In this document: piece after piece, positions 52,576 through 54,757 of the stretch
Numbering within the stretch: the first letter of the stretch is position 1
Layout: every line of letters starts with the position of its first letter
Origin: Fidelibacterota bacterium
GTDB lineage: Bacteria > Fidelibacterota > Marinisomatia > Marinisomatales > TCS55
Direction: 5' to 3'
Assembly (NCBI GenBank): GCA_018674655.1
Contig: JABGZQ010000064.1
Location: 9,019-73,018 of the forward strand
DNA length: 64,000 nt
Program-made: the position numbers and the translations under genes
Notes under the pieces: model-generated
The model's input: only the letters and a program-made list of their open reading frames with translations
What the model was told of the DNA's origin: nothing
Databases searched by the model: none

Positions 52576-53985
52576 ATGGGTATTATAAAATATCAGCGTA
52601 CAATCGGAAAAGAAACATCCTGTGTTGGTATAGGTTTACATACTGGTGTTGAGTCAACAATCACATTTAAACCTGCGTCCGAGGATTTTGGTATTCGCTT
52701 TAAACGTATGGATGTGGATGGCGGGCCAGAAATACGTGCAGATATTGACCATGTTGTTGATATCTCTCGGGGCACAACAATTGAAGAAAATGGCGTAAGG
52801 ATCCACACGGTTGAACATGCGTTGGCGGCATGCGTTGGCATTGGTCTGGATAATGTTTTAATTGAATTAACAGAAAAAGAACCTCCAGTGATGGATGGTA
52901 GTTCAATTGATTTTGTAGAAGCATTGCTTAAAAGCGGTATCGTGAAACAGGATGCACCTAGAAATTATCTTCATATTGATGAAGCCGTGGGTTACTCTGA
53001 TTCAGAACGAGGTGTTGATATTCATATTATGCCATCAGATCAGTTTCGAATCACGTTTATGATAGATTATAAATATCAATCACTGGGAACCCAATTCACT
53101 ACAATGGATCAATTAGAGCAAAACTTTGCAAAAGATATTGCACCAGCGAGGACTTTTTGTTTTTTAAGTGAGGTTGAAACATTAAAGAAAAACGGTCTTA
53201 TTCAAGGGGGAAATCTGGAGAATGCTGTTGTAATTGTTGATAAAGAAATTGATCAGGCCGAAGCAGATAACCTCCGAGGGTTGTTTGGCATTAAGCAAGA
53301 AATTAGCTTGGGTGCGAATGGGATATTAAATGGGAAAAAATTGAGATTCGAAAATGAACCAGTCCGCCACAAAGCATTAGATTTAATTGGCGATTTAGCA
53401 TTATTGGGAATGCCATTACAAGGCCACATTATAGCATCAAAAAGCGGGCATGCTGCAAATGTCGAACTTGTAAAGCGAATCAAAAAAACGTATGAGAAGA
53501 AAATACTTCGCCAACGATTTCGAAAAAGCAATTCAACAGATATTTTATTTGATATTAATTCAATTTTAAGTCTCCTTCCCCACCGATATCCATTTGTTTT
53601 GGTTGACAGAATTATTGATATCACACCCGGGGAAAAACTAACTGCCATTAAAAATGTAACCATTAATGAACCGTTTTTTCAGGGGCACTTTCCTAATCAG
53701 CCTGTCATGCCTGGTGTCTTGGTTCTAGAAGCCATGGCGCAGGCAGGTTCTTTTTTAGTTCTCAACACCGTTGATAATCCCATGAAAAAGAATATGTTTT
53801 TCTCTTCATTAACCGAAGCAAAATTCCGGCATCCAATTGTTCCTGGCGATCAACTACGCCTTGAGATGGAATTAGAAAAGTTTAAGATGGGGACGGCTTT
53901 CCTTGTAGGGAAAGGTTATGTCGGCGATAAACTGGTGGCAGAAGGCAGACTAAAAGCTACAGTGGTGGATCGGGCAGGAGCCTGA
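52576..53985 (+). CDS. lpxC-fabZ: bifunctional UDP-3-O-acyl-GlcNAc deacetylase / 3-hydroxyacyl-ACP dehydratase (LpxC-FabZ fusion)
   Basis: 469 aa. The LpxC part shows QRTI, GIGLHTG, TVEHALAA, HKALDLIGDLAL, SGHAAN. The FabZ part shows LPHRYPFVLVDRI, NEPFFQGHFP..PVMPGVL.LEAMAQ. Confidence 0.93.
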   Translation: MGIIKYQRTIGKETSCVGIGLHTGVESTITFKPASEDFGIRFKRMDVDGGPEIRADIDHVVDISRGTTIEENGVRIHTVEHALAACVGIGLDNVLIELTEKEPPVMDGSSIDFVEALLKSGIVKQDAPRNYLHIDEAVGYSDSERGVDIHIMPSDQFRITFMIDYKYQSLGTQFTTMDQLEQNFAKDIAPARTFCFLSEVETLKKNGLIQGGNLENAVVIVDKEIDQAEADNLRGLFGIKQEISLGANGILNGKKLRFENEPVRHKALDLIGDLALLGMPLQGHIIASKSGHAANVELVKRIKKTYEKKILRQRFRKSNSTDILFDINSILSLLPHRYPFVLVDRIIDITPGEKLTAIKNVTINEPFFQGHFPNQPVMPGVLVLEAMAQAGSFLVLNTVDNPMKKNMFFSSLTEAKFRHPIVPGDQLRLEMELEKFKMGTAFLVGKGYVGDKLVAEGRLKATVVDRAGA

Positions 53986-53989
53986 AGCC

Positions 53990-54757
53990 ATCCACATTCA
54001 TCCCACAGCAATCATATCGCCAAAGGCGAATCTCGGTCAGAATATATCCATCGGTGCCTATACATTATTAGAAGATAACGTAACGATTGGAGATGGAACA
54101 TCTATTGGAAACCACAATACCATCTGCCAAGGGACCACCATTGGTTCAAATTGCACCATCTTTCATAATTGTTCAATTGGAGAATCACCTCAAGATTTAA
54201 AATATGCTGGTGAAGACACCACAGCAATTATAGGGAATAATGTAATAATTCGTGAATCTGTTACAATAAATCGAGGTACAATCGCTTATGGAAAAACAGA
54301 AATTGGTGATCATGTATTATTAATGGCTTGTTCTCACATTGCCCACGATTGTATTGTTGGTGACCATACAATCATTGCAAACTTGGCCACTCTAGGGGGT
54401 CATGTTGAATTGGGAGATTACGTCAATTTGGGTGGGGGAGTTTTGGTACACCAATTTGGCAAAATAGGGTCACACTCTTTTATCGGAGGCGGATATCGTG
54501 TGGTTCAGGATGTACCCCCATTCATTATCGCCGCTGGTGAACCACTTCGTTTTGGCGGGATCAATAAGATTGGTCTTCAACGACGTGGATATTCAGATGA
54601 GACAAGATCCCTTATCAAAAAGGCATACAGGTTTTACTTTATATCGAAAATGAATCGTTCGGATGCAATAAAAAAAATGAAATTAGAATTACCTGCCACA
54701 GACGAAATAAATGCAATTATTCAATTTATTGAATCTAGTGAGCGAGGAATTATTTAA
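53990..54757 (+). CDS. lpxA: acyl-ACP--UDP-GlcNAc O-acyltransferase LpxA; no canonical start codon for the conserved N-terminal half
   Basis: The track lists only 54323-54757. The same frame is open from 53954 and encodes [36 protein letters not shown]...[12 protein letters not shown]...[10 protein letters not shown], which is the LpxA N-terminus. There is no ATG/GTG/TTG before 54323. AGGAG (53976-80) lies 9 nt upstream of ATC 53990. Confidence 0.75.
   Translation: [255 protein letters not shown]

Follow-up and report, generated by a model that had tools for sequence, protein, structure and literature searches.

The window analysed in this work is a stretch of 64,000 nucleotides on the forward strand of contig JABGZQ010000064.1 (positions 9,019 to 73,018; contig C98 in our numbering), which belongs to a Fidelibacterota metagenome-assembled genome (MAG) of 2.13 Mb in 111 contigs (GenBank assembly GCA_018674655.1). 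The nearest named relatives of this host are MAGs of 'Candidatus Neomarinimicrobiota' or Marinimicrobia (SAR406), for example NIOZ-UU60. The window contains the gene lpxA directly downstream of a fused lpxC-fabZ gene, and the first 111 codons of lpxA offer no canonical start codon. We describe here the junction between the two genes and argue, by comparison with related genomes, that lpxA is very probably translated from an AUC codon behind a Shine-Dalgarno (SD) element. The features at the junction are as follows.

52576..53985, plus strand: lpxC-fabZ fusion gene, 469 amino acids (aa), from the list of open reading frames (ORFs) and profile NF009667.
53951-53953, plus strand: in-frame TAA before the lpxA frame, read from the sequence.
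53976..53980, plus strand: SD element AGGAG, 9 nt upstream of ATC 53990.
53983..53985, plus strand: TGA stop of lpxC-fabZ, between the SD and the lpxA start, 4 nt before the ATC.
53990..53992, plus strand: ATC, proposed lpxA initiation codon, from the lack of a canonical start and from conservation.
53990..54757, plus strand: full-length lpxA coding sequence as read from that ATC, 255 codons plus stop.
53996..53998, plus strand: ATT, less likely alternative start, 15 nt from the SD; the Ile of I-H-P-T-A.
54323..54325, plus strand: internal Met codon used by ORF finders, which yields a false 144-aa product.

The lpxA frame is open from 53954 to its stop at 54755-54757 and lies +1 relative to fabZ. 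Between 53954 and 54322 this frame contains no ATG, GTG, TTG or CTG, and its earliest canonical codon is the ATG at 54323. The only near-cognate codons at the 5' end of lpxA are ATC 53969, ATC 53990 and ATT 53996. The ORF list covers the gene only as 54323-54757. The last lpxC-fabZ codons, CGG GCA GGA GCC (R-A-G-A), contain the SD of lpxA. A first-pass annotation of this DNA, made from the letters and the ORF list, had given the positions of the TAA, the open frame, the AGGAG, the TGA and the ATC together with the +1 relation, and all of these were correct on re-inspection. Its statement that no ATG, GTG or TTG precedes 54323 also held, with CTG absent as well, and the ORF track indeed offers only the C-terminal half of the gene, 144 aa long.

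The upstream ORF at 52576-53985 was identified as a bifunctional LpxC/FabZ protein by NCBIfam profile NF009667 (615.9 bits, cut-off 465), and an lpxD-like ORF at 51561-52574 precedes it, forming a lipid A neighbourhood upstream of lpxA. LpxA is the acyl-ACP--UDP-GlcNAc O-acyltransferase, and the 267-aa stop-to-stop translation of the lpxA frame matched the equivalog profiles NF003657 with 326.1 bits (cut-off 226; profile positions 4-259 of 264 on residues 13-267) and TIGR01852 with 311.4 bits (cut-off 231; profile positions 1-253 of 254, with position 1 on residue 15). Residues 13-15 of the open frame, where both LpxA profile matches begin, correspond to ATC 53990 and ATT 53996. The translation also aligns with solved LpxA structures from their first residues, and the native Met of the Bacteroides LpxA (PDB 4r36) falls between query residues 14 and 15. 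The ATG at 54323 immediately precedes the HIAHDC motif, and a product started there would be without the first 111 residues of the beta-helix. The motif aligns with HIAHDC or HVAHD in PDB 4e6u and 4r36, and H116, H119 and D120 of the H-x-x-H-D catalytic motif are invariant in 17 relatives. We take the second His of the motif to be the catalytic base (H125 in E. coli).

In relatives, the matches span residues 1-255 with no internal stops. Among 16 genomes of the genus, 66% of the nucleotide differences in codons 2-111 fall at third positions and 64% of the codon changes are synonymous, against 65% and 64% in codons 112-255. Since the two parts evolve alike, the N-terminal part is subject to the same purifying selection as the remainder of lpxA. 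Given the full-length profile and structure matches, the 111 start-less codons are, on this comparative evidence, a real and indispensable part of LpxA. The equivalog profiles and structures bear out the claim of the first-pass annotation that the frame upstream of 54323 encodes the LpxA N-terminus.

For the comparison of start codons, the junction was retrieved from 30 genomes within the window's order; 16 belong to the same genus, 5 to other genera of the family and 9 to other families. A survey of the phylum, in which 120 genomes were sampled, provided 61 further junctions, giving 91 genomes of the phylum in total. None of the 30 order-level relatives has an ATG at the lpxA start. All 30 carry an in-frame ATY codon (ATC or ATT) at an offset of 2-13 nt from the fabZ stop, counted from its first base (spacer of -1 to 10 nt); one of them (L022) may use CTG instead. 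In these relatives GGAG precedes the ATY, and TCN (Ser), GCN or CCN usually follows it. For the codon at 53990, every one of the 16 genus members has ATC or ATT, and the GCCATCC junction recurs unchanged in a MAG with 90% amino-acid identity (L002/L031). Across the phylum, the start codons were distributed as follows.

Window's class, 51 genomes: 45 with a near-cognate start only (ATC about as frequent as ATT, one ATA, one possible CTG), 2 with an incidental TTG beside a consensus ATT, and 4 with ATG.
Other classes of the phylum, 40 genomes: 34 with ATG, 3 with GTG and 3 with TTG, located 2-5 codons before the His of I-H-P-T-A.

Aligning the junction in related genomes, a check proposed by the first-pass annotation, thus revealed an ATY conserved in 45/51 genomes of the class and no shared canonical start. 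The third base of the ATY start in the class is C, T or A (23 ATC, 22 ATT and 1 ATA), with G in only 2 lineages. A canonical start was present in 71/80 named species-representative loci, which belong to Bacteroidota, Ignavibacteria, Desulfobacterota, Gemmatimonadota, Zixibacteria and three Marinimicrobia of other lineages; the other 9 all come from MAGs of Marinimicrobia/Fidelibacterota type. The ATY occupies the site where the outgroup classes and phyla have ATG. As at real N-termini, the codon after it is most often one for Ser (30/50 in-class genomes), with Ala and Pro making up most of the remainder. In genus f12_g17, the sequence at this very codon is AAA ATG AGC/AAT in three species and AAA ATT AGC/AGT in three others. 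Because ATG and ATT alternate at one codon in this genus, the ATY is homologous to an ATG start. We place the change from ATG to ATY at the base of the class and count two reversals to ATG since then.

The f12_g17 genomes (L121, L125, L126, L131, L168 and L169) are 0.9-1.1 Mb in size and 96-99% complete, some of them in 1-5 contigs.

As for which near-cognate codon initiates, the codon at 53990 is ATY in every member of the genus and the codon after it varies (H, P, A or S). In distant relatives, the equivalent ATY stands 4-5 codons before the His, where other classes have ATG. ATC 53969 is replaced by ACC in most of the genus. The preference of the first-pass annotation for ATC 53990 over the other codons is supported by SD spacing and by conservation, and lpxA translation very likely initiates there. 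A start at ATT 53996, the Ile of I-H-P-T-A, either instead of ATC 53990 or together with it, is improbable. This codon is itself near-cognate, and its equivalent is ATT, ATC or ATA in nearly all genomes, but it sits 15 nt from the SD compared with 9 nt for ATC 53990. Moreover, an Ile or Val is conserved at this site also in lineages that start at an upstream ATG, which marks it as an internal residue whose conservation is explained by protein function. Two relatives have a different codon here (CTT in L025, GTC in L023), yet both keep the upstream ATY. The residue after the upstream ATY is usually Ser, Ala or Pro, which is typical of N-termini.

The strength of the SD element varies together with the start codon. 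Of the ATY genomes, 40/46 have a GGAG, GAGG or AGGA core at 4-12 nt before the start, versus 9/44 of the canonical-start genomes (Fisher p=1.6e-10). This is striking in view of the host genome as a whole, where such a core precedes only about 22% of first canonical starts. The SD spacing was 4-12 nt in 41/50 in-class genomes, with modes of 9 and 7 nt. In f12_g17, none of the three species with ATG has an SD; all three with ATT carry GGAG or GAGG. The core is encoded by the C-terminus of FabZ. FabZ proteins of the window's order end in VVDR followed by the three residues xGx (AGA, AGG, VGG, IGG, QGV and similar), with GGAG spelled by the added codons. In the remaining orders of the class, VVDR is followed by two residues, and their codons AGG AGN likewise spell GGAG. 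The FabZ proteins of other classes mostly end at about VVD-x. A weak codon with a strong SD and a strong codon with a weak SD look like alternative states of similar output, as judged from this co-variation.

Initiation at a rare ATC or ATT codon, as in infC, was one of three explanations that the first-pass annotation had offered, and it is strongly supported by the conserved ATY, by its position at the ATG site of outgroups and by its place 4-12 nt behind a GGAG-type SD. Another was an assembly error or a mutation that had destroyed an ATG. A sequencing or assembly error, or a recent inactivating mutation that leaves a pseudogene or a 144-aa product from ATG 54323, might be suspected in a fragmented MAG of 111 contigs. 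This explanation is excluded by conservation, since the same ATY recurs in dozens of independently assembled genomes (45 in the class, including the 90%-identity MAG with the identical junction). In addition, purifying selection on the N-terminal 110 codons equals that on the remainder of lpxA, and the 144-aa product would miss the first 111 residues of the LpxA beta-helix; we regard the probability of such an artefact or lesion as negligible. The third option was recoding or coupling, of which only the latter has stood. In a recoding scenario, a programmed +1 frameshift or read-through at GCC-UGA-A, stimulated by the SD as in prfB, would produce an LpxC-FabZ-LpxA triple fusion. The window has some of the required elements: lpxA lies in +1, the UGA stop precedes an A, and an SD-like AGGAG is found shortly before the UGA. 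However, the frame of lpxA relative to fabZ among the 30 relatives is +1 in 20, 0 in 1 and +2 in 9, and two members of one genus (L009 and L010) differ in frame through a 1-nt indel in the spacer. The P-site codon GCC would become CCU in the +1 frame without re-pairing, so that no slippery codon is available, and the fabZ stop is TGA, TAA or TAG across relatives. From stop to ATY, neither the length nor the sequence of the spacer is constant, whereas the ATY and the SD spacing are kept. Since the frame relation varies, a conserved frameshift fusion is ruled out, and together with the lack of a slippery codon and the variable stop this led us to reject it; recoding at this junction has only a very slight probability. 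Coupling to fabZ, on the other hand, is likely.

A structural or tRNA-based peculiarity was also considered. The following element was predicted by folding.

53962..53995, plus strand: predicted hairpin whose loop holds AGGA and whose outer stem includes the ATC, dG -24.8 kcal/mol, z = -2.1.

RNAalifold found no consensus pairs at the junction in the 30 relatives, and no Rfam match was obtained at the junction at E<=1. The predicted hairpin is weak and not conserved, and it is probably incidental. Aragorn recovered 39 tRNAs in the host genome, including two tRNA-Met(CAT). None of the 39 has an odd anticodon, and an unusual initiator tRNA is not supported. No tRNA-Ile was recovered by aragorn, probably owing to incompleteness of the MAG.

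To see whether lpxA is alone in this respect, the host genome was scanned for coding-like start-less leaders together with SD-preceded ATY codons, a design from which SD-less ATY starts with short extensions would escape. There were 146 ORFs with a start-less leader of at least 40 codons, and lpxA was the top case of the scan, with the longest leader (123 codons) among the 40 best-scoring. A leader of this sort would not be expected by chance, and the other long ones with a real coding signal proved to be further instances of the phenomenon or the prfB frameshift ORF. The clear cases were lpxA, infC, pxpB, one carboxyltransferase paralog and the expected prfB frameshift ORF. ATC was the codon most enriched behind SD motifs in start-less leaders (39/315 vs a background of 6.4%). 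The three further genes with AUY starts (AUC or AUU) are listed below.

Contig C30, about 62070-61546, minus strand: infC, with the layout AAAGGAG-N8-ATC GCG AAA.
Contig C89, 21551-22234, plus strand: pxpB (5-oxoprolinase subunit B), TIGR00370 with 178.6 bits, profile from residue 10.
Contig C101, 23085-24842, minus strand: AccA-AccD-like fused carboxyltransferase paralog, 585 aa, with an 84-codon start-less leader.

The first canonical codon of infC is a GTG inside the conserved EVRL motif, and the IF3 profile begins 4 residues after the ATC. Judging from this arrangement, the host demonstrably uses the SD-ATC layout on the textbook non-AUG gene infC. In pxpB, no canonical start occurs for 45 codons; the gene opens with ATT-TCA, 3 nt behind the TAA of the preceding gene, and AAGGA is located 8 nt before this ATT. 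ATT or ATC is the first codon in 12/12 well-placed pxpB loci of the genus (among loci L202-L214), and a locus of another genus (L215) has a canonical start. In the carboxyltransferase paralog, an ATC-TCT stands two codons after the upstream TAA and has no SD. A canonical codon (ATG, GTG or TTG) stands at or close to the corresponding site in 22/24 loci of this paralog (L172-L195, host included), and ATC recurs in one further species (G009, L178). A separate accA of about 319 aa exists besides this paralog. A lineage-wide loss of start-codon stringency was rejected, as the genome scan gave only a handful of clear cases. AUY starts are rare and gene-specific in this host, yet recurring, and the infC ATC, the pxpB ATT and the carboxyltransferase ATC suggest that they are a recurring device in the lineage.

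Taken together, we hold with high confidence that lpxA is an intact, expressed gene and that SD-driven, fabZ-coupled initiation at AUC, as in infC, is the best reading of the lpxA junction. The initiator tRNA, which decodes AUC and AUU as formylmethionine with reduced efficiency, would presumably do so at AUC 53990, and the AGGAG in the last lpxC-fabZ codons would position the 30S subunit at this AUC. The close spacing of stop and start (a few nt) and an SD embedded in the upstream gene, as seen in the window and its relatives, are the geometry of coupled genes; with the fabZ stop 4 nt before the AUC, ribosomes that finish FabZ could re-initiate on lpxA, and translation of lpxA is likely coupled to that of fabZ. 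The AUY start arose from an ancestral AUG at the base of the class and has since been retained along with a strengthened SD. With regard to function, the AUC would set LpxA output at a modest, probably low, fraction of LpxC-FabZ output. IF3 discriminates against codons of the AUC/AUU type, which is the basis of infC autoregulation, and LpxA output would likewise be sensitive to IF3, rising when IF3 is limiting, as E. coli infC and pcnB are. Output of LpxA that is low, or throttled as the first-pass annotation put it, or sensitive to IF3 is a plausible purpose by analogy with these genes, held with much less confidence than the initiation itself. FabZ and LpxA draw on the same pool of R-3-hydroxyacyl-acyl carrier protein (ACP). 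Because the two enzymes compete for this substrate, a translationally fixed LpxA:FabZ ratio would, as a speculation, be a sensible design. More tentatively still, lpxA may be a recurrent target of weak AUY starts, with LpxA, the first enzyme of lipid A synthesis, in an IF3-sensed regulon that includes infC and pxpB, which we consider doubtful. If true, such a regulon would link the production of outer-membrane lipid, and the division of hydroxyacyl-ACP between LpxA and FabZ, to the translational state of the cell.

The same AUY initiation could also exist with no regulatory purpose, and this is a genuine possibility, albeit a somewhat unlikely one. In that case, a strong SD with AUY would have drifted to fixation at the base of the class as the equivalent of a weak or absent SD with AUG, with selection acting on total LpxA output only. 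Start-codon identity and SD presence co-vary tightly, which a neutral swap explains equally well, as it does the f12_g17 pattern of ATG genomes without SD and ATT genomes with GGAG or GAGG. Reversion to ATG has occurred in two lineages, and the ATT fixed by the host genus on the unrelated pxpB, together with the sporadic ATC on the carboxyltransferase paralog, suggests that AUY arises readily. On the other side, the AUY state has persisted across the whole class, its third base toggles between T and C with G in only the two lineages mentioned above, and infC, the classic regulated case, has an identical layout in the host genome. Returning to SD-driven initiation at AUC 53990, several points weigh against it. 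Only about 22% of first canonical starts in the host genome have a GGAG, GAGG or AGGA core 4-12 nt upstream, so that SD-driven initiation is not the general rule in this organism, and the 3' end of the 16S rRNA (anti-SD) was not found in this MAG. Four in-class genomes have reverted to ATG, which means that the weak codon is not indispensable. The compensation between SD and start codon fits a neutral, output-preserving swap without regulatory meaning equally well. Finally, there is a small chance that ATT 53996 serves as a second or alternative start.

Clade-conserved non-AUG initiation is a known phenomenon, and lpxA provides an additional, well-replicated case. To our knowledge, conserved non-AUG starts outside infC are few. 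In lpxA, a non-AUG start is found on an essential envelope gene and has been kept over class-level divergence, with a co-evolving SD in a C-terminal extension of FabZ, which makes the gene a natural and well-replicated example of the trade-off between SD strength and start-codon strength. It also raises the hypothesis that translation sets the dosage of LpxA relative to LpxC-FabZ. A practical consequence concerns annotation. Since standard gene callers accept only ATG, GTG and TTG, LpxA is reported as a 144-aa fragment or missed across a class of SAR406. Such mis-calls can distort inferences of lipid A and lipopolysaccharide capacity, protein-family alignments and pangenome counts, and Marinimicrobia (SAR406) is an abundant ocean phylum.

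Two further observations were made around lpxA. Downstream, the ORF list extends the gene between lpxA and dxr (to 55454) back to an ATG at 54711, creating a 47-nt overlap with lpxA; the ATG at 54774 (MGVIKKLSFIFIL..., signal-peptide-like) is the likelier start of this gene. Elsewhere in the phylum, 13 genomes of genus g35 in family f24 (G044, G055, G072, G076, G080, G087, G096, G107, G115, G123, G126, G129 and G136) gave no LpxA match at E<=1e-40. Completeness in this set reaches 95%, and one of the genomes consists of a single contig; the g35 lineage may have lost lipid A synthesis.

Our literature search found no paper linking lpxA with a non-canonical start codon and no Marinimicrobia paper addressing start codons in this sense. 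Start-codon tuning has reportedly been described in Listeria. The closest known systems are infC, which starts with AUU, AUC or AUA, and pcnB, which starts with AUU, in E. coli and many bacteria. They share with lpxA a conserved AUH (AUA, AUC or AUU) behind an SD, placed right after the stop of the preceding gene, without which the N-terminus would be lost. In the host itself, infC has AGGAG-N8-ATC where lpxA has AGGAG-N9-ATC. The systems differ in that lpxA encodes an enzyme of envelope lipid synthesis rather than a translation or RNA-processing factor, and in that its weak start, far from being nearly universal, is limited to a single class of one phylum. Moreover, IF3-dependent control is documented for infC, whereas for lpxA we only infer it.

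The layout also resembles termination-reinitiation, for which Adhin and van Duin are said to have put forward a scanning model. The SD lies inside the 3' end of the upstream ORF, and in the window the stop is 4 nt before the start. Here, however, the start is AUY and not AUG, and the coupling is predicted from the layout of the DNA. At an infC-like stop-start junction, about half of the initiation was found to be re-initiation and about half de novo (Osterman et al. 2013, PMC3592434). As to the yield of weak codons, AUU gives 6-8-fold less product than AUG (PMC3592434), and AUA, AUC, AUU and CUG reach 1-2% of AUG in an E. coli reporter (bioRxiv 10.1101/063800). With prfB, the junction in the window shares an SD-like element shortly before a UGA and a downstream ORF in +1, but it has no slippery codon, the frame relation is not conserved and the stop varies.

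Another parallel is found in Deinococcus, in which the ATC start of dnaA and the CTG start of rpsL were proven by N-terminal proteomics (PMC2830850). As with lpxA, the dnaA case is a clade-specific non-canonical start on a housekeeping gene, with ATC followed by Ser, which annotation pipelines mis-call. The gene and the phylum are different, and the lpxA case is comparative only, but it draws on wider sampling (the 91 genomes of the phylum). The co-variation of SD strength with the start codon, which is not reported in the Deinococcus study (PMC2830850), is seen for lpxA.

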